A DNA stretch of 64,000 nt from Salinigranum sp. GTDB taxonomy: Archaea; Halobacteriota; Halobacteria; Halobacteriales; Haloferacaceae. Every line of letters begins with the position of its first letter. Position 1 is the stretch's first letter. Under the pieces are notes generated by a model. It saw only the letters and a program-made list of their open reading frames with translations, did no database searches and was not told the origin of the DNA. A program made the translations under genes and the position numbers. Below are positions 43,454-50,233 of this stretch, one piece after another. The DNA lies in assembly GCF_041641895.1 (NCBI RefSeq), contig NZ_JBEPXO010000002.1, positions 8,814 to 72,813 on the forward strand. Direction: 5' to 3'.

Positions 43454-43670
43454 ACGCGTCGGTCGCCCGGCGGTGACAAAAAGTGTCGCTCCCGTCCCCG
43501 CCCCTCGTCTCGGGTCCCTCTCGGGTCGCTCCGCCGAGGCCTCGCCGCCGCCGCCTCCACGAACGAGTCGACTCCCCCATCCAGGCTCTGTGAAGAAAAA
43601 TTCTCTTCAACACTGCCCACCGAACCAAGGATAGCAACATTTAGGTGTGTCTGTCGATTATCTTCCACTC

Positions 43671-43886
43671 ATGAGCCGACCGAGAACAGATTACCTCTGG
43701 ATAGTGGTCTTCGCCCTGCTCGTCGTCGGGGCGATTCCGTGGTTCCTGTGGGGCGACGCGACAGTGGTCGCCGGCCTCCCCGTGTGGCTGTGGTGGCACG
43801 TCGGCTGGATGGTGCTCGCGGCGGGCGCGTTCGCGCTGTTCACCCGCGGCGCGTGGGACCGCGGGATGGGGGTGCGACATGGCTGA
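43671..43886 (+). CDS. DUF3311 small membrane partner of the SSS transporter
   Basis: IPWFLWG...GLPVWLWWHVGW; overlaps the start of the symporter gene. Confidence 0.85.
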   Translation: MSRPRTDYLWIVVFALLVVGAIPWFLWGDATVVAGLPVWLWWHVGWMVLAAGAFALFTRGAWDRGMGVRHG

Positions 43887-45375
43887 CCTCGGCCTCTCAC
43901 TCGGCATCGTCGCCGCGTACCTCGTCGTCGCGCTGGCCGTCGGCCTGCTCGCGTACCGGCTGACGGGCAGCGAGGCGGAGGACTACTACCTCGCCTCGCG
44001 CTCGATGGGGACCGTCGTCCTCCTCTTCACCACGTTCGCGACGCTGCTCTCCGCGTTTACCTTCTTCGGCGGGCCGAACCTGGCCTACGGTGCCGGCCCC
44101 GAGTGGATTCTCGTGATGGGCCTCATGGACGGCGTCCTCTTCGCCATCCTCTGGTACGTCGTCGGCTACAAGCAGTGGCTCGTCGGCAAGGCGTTCGGCT
44201 ACGTCACCCTCGGGGAGATGCTGGGCGACCGCTTCGGGTCGACCGGCCTGCGAGCGCTCGTCGCTGCCGTCTCGCTGTTCTGGCTGTTCCCGTACGTCAT
44301 GCTCCAGCAGGTGGGCGGCGGACAGGCGCTCGTCGGCCTCACCGACGGGGCCGTCCCCTACTGGGCCGGCGCGGCGCTCATCACGGTGTTCATGATCGTC
44401 TACGTCGTCGTCGCCGGACTCCGAGGCGTGGCGTGGACCGACACGCTCCAGGGCGTCTTCATGCTCGGCATCGTCTGGGTCGCCGCCGCGTGGGTCGTCA
44501 CCGGCGTCGGCGGCCTCTCGGCAGTCGGGGCCCAGTTGGCGGCCGAGAAGCCCGAGTTCGTCTCGCTCGGCGGCGGTCTCTACTCGCCGCAGTGGATGAT
44601 CTCCACGGCGGTCACCATCGCGTTCGGCGTCACGATGTTCCCACAGATCAACCAGCGCTTCTTCGTCGCGAAGGACGACCGCGTGCTGAAGCGCTCGTTC
44701 GCGCTGTGGCCCGTCCTCGTCCTCCTGCTGTTCGTCCCCGCCTTCCTGCTCGGGTCGTGGGCGGCCGGCCTCGGCGTCGCCGTTCCCGAGGGGGGGAACG
44801 TCATCCCTGCACTCCTGAACGAGTACACGCCCGCCTGGTTCGCGGCGCTCGTCATCGCGGGCGCGATGGCCGCGATGATGTCCTCCTCGGACTCGATGCT
44901 CCTGTCGGGGTCGTCGTACCTCACCCGTGACCTCTACCGCCCGCTGGTGAACCCCACGGCCTCGGCGACGAAGGAGGGCTGGGTCGCCCGCCTCGGCGTC
45001 GTCGGCTTCGCGCTCGCGTCGTTCGTCGCGTCGCTGTTCGTCGCCGGTGGCGGTGGCGGCGGGTTCGGCCTCCTCGTCAGTATCGGCGACACCGCCTTCG
45101 GCGGCTACGCCCAGCTCGCCCTGCCAGTGATGCTCGCGCTCTACTGGGCGCGGACGACCCGGCCGGGGATGATTGCCGGCGTCCTCGGGTCGCAGGCGTT
45201 CTACCTCGCACACGTCTTCGGGCCGCTCCCGACCACCTACCTCGGGTGGGACTTCGCGCTCTACGGGATGCTCCTCTCGCTCGTCCTGACGGTGGGCGTC
45301 TCGTTCGTCACGACGGCCGCACCCGGGGAGAACGCGGCGCGGTTCACCGACACCGACGCGCTCCAGGCCGACTGA
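43879..45375 (+). CDS. Sodium:solute symporter (SSS family)
   Basis: DYYLASR, ATLLSAFTFFGG, GVAWTDTLQG, AAMMSSSDS; about 13 TM segments. Confidence 0.93.
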   Translation: MADLGLSLGIVAAYLVVALAVGLLAYRLTGSEAEDYYLASRSMGTVVLLFTTFATLLSAFTFFGGPNLAYGAGPEWILVMGLMDGVLFAILWYVVGYKQWLVGKAFGYVTLGEMLGDRFGSTGLRALVAAVSLFWLFPYVMLQQVGGGQALVGLTDGAVPYWAGAALITVFMIVYVVVAGLRGVAWTDTLQGVFMLGIVWVAAAWVVTGVGGLSAVGAQLAAEKPEFVSLGGGLYSPQWMISTAVTIAFGVTMFPQINQRFFVAKDDRVLKRSFALWPVLVLLLFVPAFLLGSWAAGLGVAVPEGGNVIPALLNEYTPAWFAALVIAGAMAAMMSSSDSMLLSGSSYLTRDLYRPLVNPTASATKEGWVARLGVVGFALASFVASLFVAGGGGGGFGLLVSIGDTAFGGYAQLALPVMLALYWARTTRPGMIAGVLGSQAFYLAHVFGPLPTTYLGWDFALYGMLLSLVLTVGVSFVTTAAPGENAARFTDTDALQAD

Positions 45376-45435: not shown

Positions 45436-45834
45436 ATGGAGCCGATTCCCGCGGACGTCCACGACCTGTTCGAGAAAGCCACCTTCGCGCACTTCGCGAC
45501 GATGACGCCGTCGGGGTACCCGCACGTCACGCCCGTCTGGGTCGACTACGACGACGAGACGGGCCACCTGCTCGTCAACACCGAGCGCGAGCGGCGCAAG
45601 ACGAAGAACGTCGAGGGCAACCCGAAAGTCGGGGTGAGCATGGTCGACCCCGAGAACCCGTACCGGTTCCTCTCCGTCTTCGGCGACGTCGACGAGATTA
45701 CTACCGAGGGCGCACGCGACCACATCGACGTCCTGGCGGGGCGGTATCTGGGCGAGGAGGAGTACCCGAACCCCGTCCAGTCGGAGCGGGTCATCCTCCG
45801 CATCGCGCCCGGGCGGGTGTTCACCGGACAGTGA
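45436..45834 (+). CDS. PPOX-class (split-barrel) F420/FMN-dependent oxidoreductase
   Basis: AHFATMTPSGYPHVTPVWVD, RRKTKNVEGNPKV, NPYRFLSVFG. Confidence 0.88.
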   Translation: MEPIPADVHDLFEKATFAHFATMTPSGYPHVTPVWVDYDDETGHLLVNTERERRKTKNVEGNPKVGVSMVDPENPYRFLSVFGDVDEITTEGARDHIDVLAGRYLGEEEYPNPVQSERVILRIAPGRVFTGQ

Positions 45835-45964
45835 CCGTCACTCCCGGCGTCGGACGCTCCACCGCTTTCGACTTCGGACGGTTCGCCGTGGAGAACACCA
45901 CGCACGTCGACCGTCTCTCCTCCCAGTTCGAAGTACATTTGTCGCTCGCGCCGAACGCTCGAGT

Positions 45965-46795
45965 ATGAACGAATCGGGCTTTTCGGACCTCCTCGACCAG
46001 GAGACGCTCGCAGCGCGCGTCGACAGCGACGAGGCGCCCGACTGGGTCGCCGCCCACTGGACCTCGTTCCGTGACGGCCTCCTCGGGGACCGGAACGGGT
46101 CGCCGTTCCCCTGTTTCTTCGGCGTCGAGTCGGTCGAGAAGGGGTGGCCGCTCTACTCGACCGTCGAGTCGCTCACCGACAAGGACGCCCTCCTGACCTT
46201 CCGCGACACCCTCCTGGAGTACCTCGCGACCTACGAGGACCACGCGCCGAACGCCTCGTTCGTCGTCTTCTTCAGGCCCGACGGGGCCGAGACCGAGTCC
46301 GACTACCACGAACGCCTCTGGCACGTCCTGCAGTTCCTCCACGTCCACGACCCCGAACCGTGGCCCGACGACATCCCGACAGACCCCGACGACCCTCGCT
46401 GGGAGTTCTGCTTCGGCGGCGAACCGATGTTCCCGACGTGCCGCGCCCCGTTCTATGACGACCGGAAGAGCCGGTACTGTCCCGTCGGTCTCGAGGTCAC
46501 GTTCCAGCCTCGCAGCCTGTTCGACGGCATCACCCACGACACCGACGCGGGTCAGCGCGCCCGCGACGTCATCCAGGGTCGCCTCTCGGAGTACGACGGC
46601 GTCTGCCCCCACGCTGACCTCGGCGACTGGGGCGTCGAGGGTGACCGCGAGTGGGTCCAGTACATGCTCTCGGAAGACGACTCGCAGTTCCCCGACGAGT
46701 GTCCGCTCGCCATCTCCCGCGACCACCCGAAGGCCGTCTCGACACCGCTCGACCCCGAACCCGACGCGGGCCCGAACGCCTCGACGGCGGACTGA
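45965..46795 (+). CDS. YqcI/YcgG family protein (DcsA/GntA-like heme enzyme candidate)
   Basis: FPCFFG, WHVLQFLH..DP.PWP..IP.DPDDP.WEFCFGGEPMF, SRY, TFQPR, EW.QY family motifs. Confidence 0.88.
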   Translation: MNESGFSDLLDQETLAARVDSDEAPDWVAAHWTSFRDGLLGDRNGSPFPCFFGVESVEKGWPLYSTVESLTDKDALLTFRDTLLEYLATYEDHAPNASFVVFFRPDGAETESDYHERLWHVLQFLHVHDPEPWPDDIPTDPDDPRWEFCFGGEPMFPTCRAPFYDDRKSRYCPVGLEVTFQPRSLFDGITHDTDAGQRARDVIQGRLSEYDGVCPHADLGDWGVEGDREWVQYMLSEDDSQFPDECPLAISRDHPKAVSTPLDPEPDAGPNASTAD

Positions 46796-46798
46796 ACG

Positions 46799-47374
46799 AT
46801 GTCCGCGCTCTCGCTCCCCGCCGACCCCGTCCTCCTCCTCGTCGACCTCCAGACGGGCTTCGACGAACCGCACTGGGGCGACCGGAACAATCCCGACGCC
46901 GAAGCGAACGCCGCACGTCTGCTGGAGGCGTGGCGCTCGTGGGGACTGCCGGTCGTCCACGTCCGCCACGACTCCACCGAGGCCGACTCCCCCCTCCGCG
47001 GGGACGCCCCCGGCTTCGCGTGGAAACCCGCGTTCGAACCCCGCGAGGACGAACAGACGTACGTCAAGCACGTCAACAGCGCCTTCGTCGGGACCGGACT
47101 GGAGGCGTGGCTCCGAGACCACGGGTACGAGTCGGTCGTCGTCGCCGGCCTCACGACCGACCACTGCGTGTCGACGACGACCCGGATGGCCGAGAACCTG
47201 GGCTTCTCGCCCGTGGTGGTGTGTGACGCGACGGCGACCCACGAGCGCGAACTCGACGGCGAGACGTTCGACGCCGACACGATGCATCGGACGGCACTGG
47301 CGCACCTCTCCGGGGAGTTCGCCGAGGTAGCGACGACCGACGCGGTGCTCTCGGTGCTGCCGAGCGGGACGTAG
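46799..47374 (+). CDS. Cysteine hydrolase (isochorismatase family)
   Basis: Asp-Lys-Cys triad in [22 protein letters not shown]; 3-nt gap after the YqcI/YcgG gene. Confidence 0.93.
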
Positions 47375-47434: not shown

Positions 47435-47878
47435 CTAGTCGTTGAGGCGAACGAGCGGGCACTCGAACGCGTCGACGGGGTCTTCGGAGACGCTGAGTTC
47501 ACCTGCTCTCTCGTACTGTACCACTTCGTGGTAACTCGTCAACTGCTTCGGGTCGCCGTGCCACGTCAGCGGGTGGACGGCCCAGCGGCCGCCGTTGTAG
47601 TGGCGGTTCCCCGGAGCGGCCTCCGAGACTGGGACGAAGTCGAGGTGGGTGAACAGCTTGTCGTACGACTGTTCGTTCCTGTCGGTGGGCAGCGGCAGGT
47701 CGGCCACGCCCTTCGTGGCCCAGAGCGTCCCGTCGCCGTAGATTCGTCCCTCGAAGCCCGGTGGTTCCGCGGCGGCAGGTGCGCTCGTGGCACCGATGCC
47801 GAGCGCCAGTCCCGAGACGACGAGACCCGTCCGTAGATACCGACGGCGCGACAGCCTCGTGGTGTGTTCTTCGGTCAT
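47435..47878 (-). CDS. Tat-exported small protein of unknown function
   Basis: SRRRYL twin-arginine motif, hydrophobic region, AAA cleavage site; mature part with SYDKLF, VSEAAPG..YNGGRW, FECPL. Confidence 0.8.
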   Translation of the reverse strand: MTEEHTTRLSRRRYLRTGLVVSGLALGIGATSAPAAAEPPGFEGRIYGDGTLWATKGVADLPLPTDRNEQSYDKLFTHLDFVPVSEAAPGNRHYNGGRWAVHPLTWHGDPKQLTSYHEVVQYERAGELSVSEDPVDAFECPLVRLND

Positions 47879-48100
47879 GGTGGTGGGGGTTCTTCCCCGC
47901 CGGAGGAGGGTCGACCACGGATATAGTAATTTTTCCAACACGTTACCGACTCCCGGTGGGGTTCCTGCCGACTGTGTACCGACTCTCTCTCCACTCGGGC
48001 CCGACTCGTTCTCCCGGCGCGTGCGTCGCTCACGGGTGCGCCCCTGCGGAGTCTGCCATCGAGGGGCGTTCGGACGACAGGTTCGACGCCGACCGGGCCG

Positions 48101-50233
48101 TCAGCGGTCGTTCCCCGTCACGAGTGCGACGTTGCCCGACGTGTCCCCGAGCGTCTCGAGGAGCGCTCCGTCGTCCAGGGCGACGCACACGGTCTCGTAC
48201 CGGGCCAGCGTCTCCTGAAGCGCGTCGCCCGCGACCGCTGTCACCTCGAAGTCGTCGGTATCGACACCGGCGGCGGCCACCCGCTCGGTGACGGCCGCTG
48301 CGTCGTCGCTCGACTCCCCAGCGTCCATCGACTCGACGGCGAGCAACGTCGGGACGACTCCGTCGACCGTCGCGAACTCGACGATGCGTCGGGCGACGGC
48401 GGACGCGTCGGCGTCCGGGGTCACCAGCCCCACTGGCGTTCCGACGTCTCCCCGGAGCGCGACGAGGACGACGTCGCACGGTGCGTGCTCGACGAGTCCC
48501 TCGAGCATCGGGCCGACGACGGCTCCGTCGGTGTCGACGGTGCCGTCCCACCCGACGAGCACCTCGTCGGCGTCTTCCTCCTCGAGGACGTCGAGAATCG
48601 CCGCTCCGGTGTCCGGAGCGACGACCGCTCGGGTCCGCAGGCGAACGTCCATCTCCTCGGCGAACTGCTTGGCGGCGGCGAGCAAGTCGCGCTGGTGGTC
48701 GAGTCGGTCGGATTCGACGTTCTGTAAGGGGGATGGGTGTTCCACGTGGACGACGTTGACCGCGACGAGTTCGGGGTCGCCGGCGTCGGCGTTCGCGTGT
48801 GCGCTGGCCGCAGCGAGTCGAATCAGCCGCCGCTGCGTCTCGGGGTTCGCGACGGGGACGACGACCCGGTACGGGTTGGCCAGTTCCGGCCGGAGTGCCT
48901 CTCGCAAGAGCCCTTCACCCACGACGCGGCTTCTGGCGTAGACGGCGTACCAGACGACGCCGAGGGCGACGATTCCCGTCCCGACCAGGACGATGACGGG
49001 TGCCATCTGCGAGACGACGGCGAGCGACAGGACGACGCCGAGAATCGGCACGGCCGGGTAGAGCGGATTCGGGAGGGTGAACGACGGGTCGTACTCGTCG
49101 GGGTCGGCACGTCTGAAGACGACGAGCGAGACGTGGACGAGCGAGTACGCGACGAGGAAGCTGAAACTCGCCGCCTCGGCCAAAAGCGAGATGATGGCAT
49201 CGACGCCGAGGCCGACCGAGACGAGGAGCGCGATGACGCCGCCGGTGACGAGAATCGCCCGGTGGGGGGTGAAGAAGCGGGGGTGGCTCGTGTTCAGCCA
49301 CTCGCTCACGATACCGTCGCGGCCCATGGCGTAGACGACGCGCGAGGCGGCGAGCACGGACGAGTTCGAACTCGAGATGGCGGCGACGATGGCGGCGAAC
49401 ACGATGGCGACCGCACCGATTGGGCCGAGGTACACCGTGATGACGTCGGCGACCGGAATCGGTGAGGCGGCCAGCGCGTCGACCGGGAGCACGCCGGTGC
49501 TGACGAGCATGACGAGCACGTACAGGAGCGTCACCAGCACGACCGAGAGAATCATCGACAGCGGGATGATGCGACTGGGGTTCTTGATCTCGCCGGCGAC
49601 GGTCGCGATGATCTCGAAGCCGAGGAAGGAGATGAACACGATGCCGGTCGTCGCGACGACGCCCGTCGCCCCCGTGGGGGCGAACGGCTCGAGGTTCACC
49701 GGGTCGATGAAGAAGACGCCGACGGCGACGAAGACGAGGATGACCGCAGTCTCGGCCCCAATCATGACGTTCTGGAGGGAACTCGACTCCTCGGTCCCGT
49801 AGTAGTTGACCCCGACGAGCAGCGCCAGTCCGAAGAGGCCCAGAGCGACGATGAAGACGCGCCCGTCGAGGAACGGGACCGGTTCGACGATGTACTGGCC
49901 GAACCCGATCATGTAGAAGGCGCTCGCGAACATCAGCCCGGTCCACATCCCCCACCCGACGATACTCCCGAAGAGCCCCCCAAGCGCGCGGTTGACGTAG
50001 TGGTAGCTCCCGCCGGCGATGGGCATCCCGGTCGCCAGTTCCGAGAGCGACAGTGCGGCCAGCAGCGCGACGAACCCGGCGATGGCGTACGATATCGAAC
50101 TCGCTGGCCCGGCGTTCTGCGCCGCGATTCCGGGCAGGATGAAGATGCCCGCACCGATCATCGTCCCGCCGCCGAGCGTCATCGCCTCGAGGAACCCCAG
50201 GGTCCGCTCGAGTTCCCCACCGTCGACGCTCAT
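48101..50233 (-). CDS. APC-family amino acid permease with C-terminal USP domains
   Basis: GGGTMIGAGIFILPG, FLGFEIIATVAGE, SRVVYAMGRDG; then YRVVVPVANP and a USP fold. Confidence 0.93.
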   Translation of the reverse strand: MSVDGGELERTLGFLEAMTLGGGTMIGAGIFILPGIAAQNAGPASSISYAIAGFVALLAALSLSELATGMPIAGGSYHYVNRALGGLFGSIVGWGMWTGLMFASAFYMIGFGQYIVEPVPFLDGRVFIVALGLFGLALLVGVNYYGTEESSSLQNVMIGAETAVILVFVAVGVFFIDPVNLEPFAPTGATGVVATTGIVFISFLGFEIIATVAGEIKNPSRIIPLSMILSVVLVTLLYVLVMLVSTGVLPVDALAASPIPVADVITVYLGPIGAVAIVFAAIVAAISSSNSSVLAASRVVYAMGRDGIVSEWLNTSHPRFFTPHRAILVTGGVIALLVSVGLGVDAIISLLAEAASFSFLVAYSLVHVSLVVFRRADPDEYDPSFTLPNPLYPAVPILGVVLSLAVVSQMAPVIVLVGTGIVALGVVWYAVYARSRVVGEGLLREALRPELANPYRVVVPVANPETQRRLIRLAAASAHANADAGDPELVAVNVVHVEHPSPLQNVESDRLDHQRDLLAAAKQFAEEMDVRLRTRAVVAPDTGAAILDVLEEEDADEVLVGWDGTVDTDGAVVGPMLEGLVEHAPCDVVLVALRGDVGTPVGLVTPDADASAVARRIVEFATVDGVVPTLLAVESMDAGESSDDAAAVTERVAAAGVDTDDFEVTAVAGDALQETLARYETVCVALDDGALLETLGDTSGNVALVTGNDR

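Follow-up and report, generated by a model that had tools for sequence, protein, structure and literature searches.

A conserved gene pair in Halobacteria encoding a predicted heme-thiolate guanidine N-hydroxylase and a cysteine hydrolase

Background

What would an enzyme of the YqcI/YcgG family be doing on the chromosome of a haloarchaeon, immediately upstream of a gene for a cysteine hydrolase? The six YqcI/YcgG enzymes characterised so far are all bacterial, and all belong to natural-product pathways (PMC12866846). The question is raised by positions 45965-47374 of a 64,000-nucleotide (nt) stretch of DNA from a Salinigranum species (contig NZ_JBEPXO010000002.1, positions 8,814 to 72,813 of the forward strand; hereafter the window), where two plus-strand genes lie almost end to end. 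A first-pass annotation of this DNA had proposed that they may form a route for the N-hydroxylation of guanidines, and had noted genes for a transporter and a PPOX-class oxidoreductase upstream, the latter a possible electron supplier. Our literature search found no paper on haloarchaeal YqcI genes, nor any linking YqcI or hydroxyarginine with an isochorismatase. Here we report that the two genes form a widely conserved pair in Halobacteria, weigh the evidence that the first encodes a heme-thiolate N-hydroxylase, and propose a candidate sequence of reactions for the two products. The pair and its predicted promoter are laid out as follows.

45926-45941, plus strand: element resembling a B recognition element and TATA box (BRE/TATA-like), GTTCGAAGTACATTTG, predicted promoter, 24-39 nt 5' of the YqcI ATG
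45965-46795, plus strand: YqcI/YcgG protein of 276 amino acids (P0001; PF08892, AglA match), predicted heme-thiolate guanidine N-hydroxylase
46799-47374, plus strand: isochorismatase-family cysteine hydrolase of 191 amino acids (P0002; PF00857), with D16, K90 and C123

The stop codon of the YqcI gene (TGA, 46793-46795) is separated by a spacer of 3 nt from the ATG of the hydrolase at 46799. A motif of the form GTTCGAAG-N4-TTTG stands at the same offset before YqcI in the window and in five Salinigranum chromosomal loci, and analogous CGAA...TACAAT/ATAAAA elements are found upstream of YqcI in other genera. The fixed distance of the BRE/TATA-like element implies a leaderless transcript starting at or near the YqcI ATG. 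Positions 45965-47374 are thus probably a two-gene operon with its own predicted promoter, and the arrangement suggests a single leaderless bicistronic transcript. The four genes described in the first-pass annotation, their common strand, the FPC motif of the YqcI protein, the 3-nt spacing and the D-K-C triad of the hydrolase were all found as it had given them.

Conservation of the gene pair

The survey of the pairing covered 121 Halobacteria genomes, evenly sampled and each at least 90% complete, with presence and adjacency drawn from tblastn and adjacency tallied by hand from the coordinate tables. This YqcI clade is present in 80 of the 121 genomes, and all 80 also encode the hydrolase, in 75 cases as the next gene downstream, read in the same direction. 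Neither gene is found in another 37 genomes, and the remaining four carry the hydrolase without YqcI. Among 20 loci examined in relatives, the hydrolase is directly downstream on the same strand in 18, the exceptions being a congener (G003) and a second, plasmid-borne YqcI paralogue; a plasmid hit in Salinigranum marinum agrees in its coordinates with a second copy in a same-genus genome.

The two genes adjoin each other even in the most divergent branches, where YqcI identity falls to 54% (Haladaptatus sp. ZSTT2) and 48% (Halorubellus). Maximum-likelihood analysis groups the YqcI proteins linked to a hydrolase in a single clade (support 98/98), which nests within a larger YcgG-like group holding Bacillus proteins; the nearest cluster outside the clade (P0126) is itself haloarchaeal, from Halorubellus. 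The genes flanking the pair differ completely between families, and its adjacency therefore goes beyond the inheritance of a syntenic block. Chance falls far short of explaining the pairing, and we consider it highly probable that the two genes are functionally coupled. On this point, the conservation of the pair as neighbours, the synteny survey bears out the first-pass annotation. With its chromosomal location, very high conservation and occurrence in most of the sampled haloarchaea, the pair looks like ordinary metabolism and not like an antibiotic cluster.

Plasmid-borne bacterial homologues of the hydrolase are standalone, and the pair was not found in bacteria where we searched, bacterial chromosomes not having been systematically surveyed. 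Both protein families are present in Haloferax volcanii, a genetically tractable species.

The YqcI protein and its predicted heme site

The YqcI protein matches PF08892 with 243 bits (gathering score 27; E 3e-72) over model positions 7-210 of 211. Its only sequence relatives in the PDB are structures of AglA (9uba/9ub3; E 5e-42, about 33% identity), the heme-thiolate N-epsilon-hydroxylase of aminomethylphosphonate-arginine in the argolaphos pathway of Streptomyces monomycini (9ub3/9ub5/9uba/9ubb). An AlphaFold2 model built from 36 orthologues (predicted local distance difference test 76, predicted template modelling score 0.78), with low-confidence loops at residues 161-169 and 209-227, was compared with the PDB by Foldseek, and the sole significant matches were five AglA entries (E 1.6e-17 to 1e-15; template modelling scores 0.72/0.82). 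Judged by this model, the protein has the 'sandwich' fold of the AglA type.

In AglA, Cys44 is the axial heme thiolate and is essential, its mutation abolishing activity; Arg166, Lys196 and Arg200 serve as ligands to the heme propionates, the arginine side chain is clamped between Phe152 and Phe182, and Arg179, Gln177 and Gln228 position the backbone and guanidine (PMC12866846). Residue equivalents in the window protein were counted along a HMMER alignment, with AglA numbering taken from the same paper. The cysteine of the FPC motif (residues 48-50) is C50, which aligns with Cys44 and is invariant in the 36 orthologues and in 27 family representatives. AglA residues F152, R166, Q177, R179, F182 and Q228 correspond to F156, R170, Q181, R183, F186 and Q232, and K196, R200 and K225 to R200, Q204 and E229. 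Across the 36 haloarchaeal orthologues, whose mean column identity is 75%, C50, F156, R170, Q181, R183, F186, R200, E229 and Q232 are invariant, and with Q204 included the AglA-equivalent positions are invariant or nearly so. Of the AglA residues described above, only Arg200 lacks an identical or equivalent counterpart, Q204 standing in its place.

The window protein is therefore like AglA in Pfam family, fold, axial cysteine, the two clamping phenylalanines and the arginine and glutamine residues that surround the guanidine. So far as sequence and fold can tell, C50 is the equivalent of Cys44, consistent with the FPC cysteine being the heme ligand, a point that the first-pass annotation had put forward for testing; in another family member, ChmN, the C47A variant loses heme. 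These comparisons support the view that the protein carries the sequence and fold hallmarks of the heme-thiolate guanidine N-hydroxylases, with Q204 at one of the three propionate positions, and that it would bind heme and have such an activity; that it is a heme N-oxygenase of some kind seems to us very likely. It had been labelled 'DcsA/GntA-like'; its nearest characterised relative is AglA, and it misses the GntA equivalog model NF041366 (47 bits against a cut-off of 145, with only part of the protein covered). GntA, the L-enduracididine N-hydroxylase of the guanitoxin pathway, belongs to the same Pfam family and is not an ortholog of the window protein.

Four further invariant cysteines (C159, C172, C214 and C246) were considered as an iron-sulfur or other metal site, a role that is not supported because C172 and C214 are confined to the clade, C159 is variable elsewhere, and C246 belongs to the CP(F) motif of the family. 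Within the clade C159, C172 and C214 are invariant or nearly so, and they lie in or near the low-confidence loops, the equivalent of the mobile loop L2 of AglA; C172 and C214 are absent from YqcI relatives outside the clade. Among the family representatives, YqcI domains are fused to Rieske (one case), methyltransferase, SznF-type HO-like, nonribosomal peptide synthetase C/A/T, aminotransferase IV and GNAT domains, and none of these domain fusions joins YqcI to an isochorismatase domain.

The predicted substrate pocket

Wild-type AglA rejects free arginine, and a single K196R or K225E substitution causes free L-arginine to be hydroxylated; in the engineered enzyme the arginine bridges to the substrate carboxylate and the glutamate anchors the alpha-amino group. 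The window protein natively has Arg200 and Glu229 at the two positions that were changed, whereas in AglA Lys196 and Lys225 bind the phosphonate. In the alignment of the 27 representatives this arginine and glutamate are present in nearly all and are thus the family default, AglA being the exception. ChmN hydroxylates free L-arginine at N-delta and N-omega. From the native R200/E229 and the precedent of ChmN, we infer that the substrate is an alpha-amino acid in free form whose side chain bears a guanidino group.

On these residues, the likeliest substrate of the YqcI protein is L-arginine or a compound much like it, and homology is, we judge, too unspecific a guide to exclude close analogues of arginine. 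The first-pass annotation had offered arginine and agmatine side by side; arginine is favoured by the native R200 and E229, and agmatine is less likely because it has no carboxylate, whereas these two residues anchor carboxylate and amino groups.

The cysteine hydrolase

The partner gene sets this locus apart from the characterised systems. ChmN (chalkophomycin and graminine-type pathways) and DcsA (D-cycloserine), compared here by description, are of the same family as the window protein and have an FPC-type cysteine as heme ligand (C47 in ChmN) and free L-arginine as substrate; the partner of ChmN, however, is an SznF-like N-nitrosating enzyme and that of DcsA is the arginase-family DcsB, which releases hydroxyurea, whereas the partner in the window is a hydrolase of the isochorismatase fold. 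Likewise, the AglA gene shares an antibiotic cluster with that of a PDR/VanB reductase; the window gene stands beside a cysteine hydrolase and outside any such cluster.

The hydrolase matches PF00857 with 115 bits (gathering score 27; E 6e-33) over model positions 2-174 of 175, so that both profiles named in the first-pass annotation, PF08892 and PF00857, recognise the two proteins. D16, K90 and C123 are invariant in 19 orthologues and align with the D/K/C positions of 3lqy, and the same 19 proteins carry the subfamily signature WGxRNNP and HxRHxS. The best PDB match is 3mcw, an uncharacterised bacterial 'putative hydrolase' (E 3.5e-48), and the nearest structures (3mcw, 3lqy and 4h17) are all without known function. 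At the position of the catalytic Cys123, 3mcw carries a serine; its subfamily may therefore include members that use another nucleophile or are inactive.

The NCBIfam equivalog models score far below their cut-offs: 54 bits against 370 for BiuH, 52 against 195 for YecD, 29 against 174 for PncA (NF008623, which matches over 48 residues only), 25 against 378 for RutB and 22 against 310 for YcaC. The protein has its fold family and D-K-C triad in common with BiuH, TrtA (triuret hydrolase), N-carbamoylsarcosine amidase, RutB and PncA, and the characterised proteins of the PDB and NCBIfam that stand nearest to it, biuret hydrolase, N-carbamoylsarcosine amidase and RutB, are amide or ureido hydrolases. 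By these comparisons it is an isochorismatase-like cysteine hydrolase of no characterised subfamily.

Could the two proteins be functionally unrelated, the hydrolase being for example an ordinary nicotinamidase and the adjacency a matter of inherited gene order? Some room for this is left by the classification itself: the genome has two other isochorismatase-family genes, and all three fall below every NCBIfam equivalog cut-off, none being securely assigned. One of these paralogues (L060), however, fits PncA better than the window hydrolase does (43 bits, with most of the model covered). An enzyme of nicotinamide adenine dinucleotide salvage would also not be expected to track YqcI as this one does, co-occurring with it in 80 of 80 genomes and missing from 37 that lack it, and the adjacency survives complete turnover of the flanking genes. 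We find this explanation scarcely credible; judged by sequence, the hydrolase is no recognisable nicotinamidase, the outcome that would have counted against the first-pass annotation.

A MOSC-domain neighbour

In some of the genomes a third gene stands next to the pair. Its product is a small MOSC-domain protein (150-165 amino acids, with an invariant CxxC). In 14 of the 80 genomes, drawn from five families, the gene immediately precedes YqcI and is read in the same direction. It has the same position at loci L046, L063 and L064, Natronococcus pandeyae and Haloarcula marina being among the hosts; the MOSC loci listed alongside the main survey are L027, L034, L046, L063 and L064. A gene for a Rieske protein of 147 amino acids precedes the MOSC gene in Haloarcula marina, the only place where Rieske was seen upstream, and Haladaptatus ZSTT2 has a longer MOSC_N+MOSC form in the order MOSC, YqcI, hydrolase, Cys/Met-type pyridoxal phosphate enzyme. 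Of the five genomes in which the hydrolase is no longer next to YqcI, four still have the MOSC gene there. The genome from which the window is taken has its MOSC orthologue on another contig, at the contig end (G000:C22:43006-43455).

MOSC enzymes (mARC, YcbX and YiiM) are molybdenum-dependent reductases of N-hydroxylated compounds, with N-hydroxy-L-arginine, hydroxyurea and hydroxylaminopurine among the substrates that they reduce; mARC converts N-omega-hydroxy-L-arginine back to arginine and also reduces hydroxyurea. By analogy with these enzymes, we regard the MOSC neighbour as an independent link to N-OH chemistry and as the strongest contextual support for the hydroxylase assignment.

Other YqcI clades

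The nearest bacterial clade that we found is that of Bacillus subtilis YcgG (about 41-45% identity), one of the proteins from which the family takes its name and the closest of the named ones, which is likewise outside natural-product clusters and translationally coupled to one partner gene. That partner is the LysE-type amino-acid exporter YcgF, whereas in the window it is the hydrolase. The YcgG-clade gene overlaps the LysE-family exporter gene by a few nt in Bacillus subtilis and Halalkalibacterium halodurans (together L042-L045), in Natrinema (L050) and on plasmids of the Bacillus cereus group (H42-H48). The occurrence of this overlap both in Bacillus and in a haloarchaeon suggests export of a hydroxylated basic amino acid.

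A second haloarchaeal YqcI clade (about 42% identity) belongs to a cassette of sulfotransferase, small open reading frame, adenylyl-sulfate kinase (cysC) and YqcI genes. This cassette occurs in four families, mostly on megaplasmids (L049, L052, L055-L059), and its hosts are Halopelagius, Haladaptatus, Haloprofundus, Halomicrobium, Halostagnicola and Halocatena (on megaplasmids or contigs). By analogy with the N-O-phosphate of guanitoxin, the gene content predicts an O-sulfonated N-hydroxyguanidine as the product.

A candidate sequence of reactions

We propose that the YqcI protein, which by homology would bind heme through Cys50, would hydroxylate a guanidino nitrogen of a free alpha-amino acid, consuming O2 and drawing its electrons from a ferredoxin-type partner of general function whose gene lies elsewhere. 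N-hydroxylation would leave the amidine carbon with less resonance stabilisation, lower basicity and greater electrophilicity than it has in the parent guanidine, and in a second step, suggested by the gene coupling and the chemistry of the hydrolase family, Cys123 of the hydrolase would attack this carbon of the N-hydroxyguanidine, with cleavage of a C-N bond. Candidate outcomes are N-hydroxycitrulline and NH3, ornithine and hydroxyurea, N5-hydroxyornithine and urea, or citrulline and hydroxylamine, and which of the four applies cannot be told from sequence. The second of these would be the net Dcs reaction, but achieved with a different enzyme fold. In genomes with an upstream MOSC gene, its product would reduce the N-OH intermediate or product.

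The logic of oxygenase followed by hydrolase has a precedent in the Rut pathway, where an oxygenase and then the isochorismatase-family RutB act in the breakdown of a nitrogen-rich compound. What is new here is that known enzyme families stand in a widely conserved pairing, which implies an undescribed reaction sequence. We rate the chances of the two-step statement as a whole, hydroxylation and then hydrolysis, as even. A more far-reaching reading is that Halobacteria open the guanidino group of arginine in an O2-dependent way unrelated to arginase, arginine deiminase or the amidinotransferases: heme-thiolate N-hydroxylation would weaken the guanidine, the cysteine hydrolase would cleave it via a covalent thio-intermediate, the small MOSC molybdoenzyme, where present, would remove the N-OH, and hydroxyurea, hydroxylamine or products of the N-hydroxy-ornithine/citrulline type would be ordinary metabolites in about two-thirds of haloarchaea. 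As a whole this reading is tentative and, in our view, clearly less likely than not.

Several observations weigh against the proposed sequence. Heme binding, substrate, product and step order are all inferred for this clade, and no enzyme of the isochorismatase family is known to us to hydrolyse guanidines, N-hydroxylated or not. In bacteria, homologues of the hydrolase (41-49% identity at a query coverage of at least 87%) are standalone with no YqcI nearby, and the hydrolase therefore needs no YqcI product in those organisms. At the heme-propionate positions R170 and R200 are present, and the third is Q204 in this clade, where most relatives have Arg. No ferredoxin or reductase gene lies within about 8 kb of the pair in the window; characterised family members take their electrons from ferredoxin and ferredoxin-NADP reductase (FNR) or from a PDR/VanB reductase, and AglA and ChmN also work with spinach ferredoxin/FNR, so that a dedicated redox partner nearby is not required.

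Gene content also supplies exceptions. Five of the 80 genomes keep YqcI and the hydrolase apart, and G003 (L026, same genus, 90% complete) has the PPOX and YqcI genes in place and no hydrolase anywhere in its genome. In G135, of the Haloferacaceae, we observed only a YqcI fragment (residues 148-258) and no hydrolase; both genomes look like decay of the unit. From the standpoint of physiology, a cycle of hydroxylation, hydrolysis and reduction that merely gave citrulline would be wasteful next to arginine deiminase, and the purpose may be nitrogen release, synthesis of a small N-hydroxy metabolite or detoxification.

The same two enzymes could also act in the reverse order, the hydrolase freeing a guanidino or amidino amino acid from an N-carbamoyl, N-acyl or amide precursor and the heme enzyme then N-hydroxylating it, with the N-hydroxy compound as end product. 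All characterised isochorismatase-family cysteine hydrolases do act on amide or ureido groups and not on guanidines, and the sister YcgG clade, paired with a LysE exporter instead of a hydrolase, is consistent with a hydroxylated amino acid as the final, exported product. Yet the gene order is always YqcI and then hydrolase, no candidate precursor pathway lies nearby, and the upstream MOSC reductase better suits the handling of an N-OH compound than that of a precursor. We consider the reverse order unlikely.

A further alternative takes up the last of the purposes named above: the pair may be a defence or detoxification module that destroys an exogenous toxic guanidino or N-hydroxylated antimetabolite of hypersaline communities, such as an arginine analogue, hydroxyurea or a hydroxylamino compound. 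The pocket, however, is of the kind that the family has by default for free amino acids of the arginine type, the 75% column identity and the chromosomal, syntenic location are more like housekeeping metabolism, and no regulator or efflux gene accompanies the hydrolase-linked clade. These points make such a module improbable in our view, even when set against the known detoxification of N-hydroxylated compounds by MOSC proteins, the coupling of a related YcgG clade to LysE-type efflux in Bacillus and Natrinema, and a patchy distribution (80 of 121 genomes) that suits an accessory trait.

Genes flanking the pair

The two-step sequence of hydroxylation and hydrolysis involves only the pair and, in some genomes, the MOSC gene. 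In the window the pair is the end of a run of five plus-strand genes, from DUF3311 through the hydrolase, in a region of about 69% G+C. The other features are these.

43647-43886, plus strand: DUF3311 small membrane protein or subunit (PF11755)
43879-45375, plus strand: sodium:solute symporter (SSS; PF00474, E 6e-46)
45436-45834, plus strand: PPOX-class protein, F420-type (TIGR03618, 98 bits against a cut-off of 79)
47435-47941, minus strand: small protein with an arginine-rich N-terminus, possibly of the twin-arginine translocation (Tat) type; weak DUF7482 match
48101-50233, minus strand: amino-acid permease with a C-terminal universal stress protein (Usp) domain

The permease-Usp gene converges on the pair from the opposite strand, with the small minus-strand reading frame in between.

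Extended to the genes upstream, the first-pass proposal becomes a pathway of four genes: arginine or agmatine would be taken up by the SSS transporter, the PPOX/F420 protein would donate electrons to the hydroxylase, and the hydrolase would set free a product of the hydroxyurea type, as happens in D-cycloserine biosynthesis. All four genes are on one strand in the window, and DUF3311-SSS genes directly abut YqcI in several Haloferacaceae. The PPOX gene, however, adjoins YqcI only in the window and the five Salinigranum chromosomal loci; its homologues are found in 70 of the 121 genomes, some of them without the pair, and are never adjacent to YqcI in the class sample. As only 70-110 nt separate SSS from YqcI in several other Haloferacaceae, PPOX looks like a genus-specific intervening gene, and it was rejected as a component of the system. 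An electron-donor role also finds no parallel among known family members, which use ferredoxin/FNR or PDR/VanB, and we know of no heme-thiolate enzyme that is reduced by a PPOX protein.

An SSS orthologue is present in 108 of the 121 genomes, many of which lack YqcI, and it is upstream and adjacent to YqcI in about 25 of the 80, in two families only. The idea that SSS/DUF3311 is a dedicated importer was downgraded on these counts; what links the SSS gene to YqcI is shared position in some members of the class, not a dedicated partnership. Neither gene is part of the core, because PPOX is restricted to one genus and SSS is near-universal and adjacent in so few genomes. As for the hydroxyurea-releasing step, DcsB is of the arginase family and differs in fold from the window hydrolase, Pfam scans of the neighbouring genes detected no arginase, ATP-grasp, racemase or cysteine-synthase homologue, and the scans turned up no other Dcs-type gene within 8 kb; the arrangement is not of the Dcs type. 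As regards PPOX, the four-gene pathway is largely refuted by synteny, and we hold the pathway to be very improbable. What finds support in the earlier interpretation is the hallmarks of the hydroxylase, the conserved pair and a hydrolase not recognisable as a nicotinamidase; the roles considered for PPOX and SSS are not supported.

Conclusions

The gene pair described here, which about two-thirds of haloarchaea carry, points to a route of two steps for compounds of the N-hydroxy-arginine type that lies apart from antibiotic gene clusters. It would give the YqcI/YcgG family a physiological role, which, if true, would be its first archaeal and first non-antibiotic one, and it would give the isochorismatase-type cysteine hydrolases a new reaction, with an N-hydroxyguanidine, or a compound formed from one, as substrate. 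A defined physiological substrate would also come into view for a mARC relative of bacterial type, the MOSC protein that recurs beside the pair. Finally, a natural N-hydroxylase of free arginine, a property that had to be engineered in the study of AglA, could serve as a biocatalyst.

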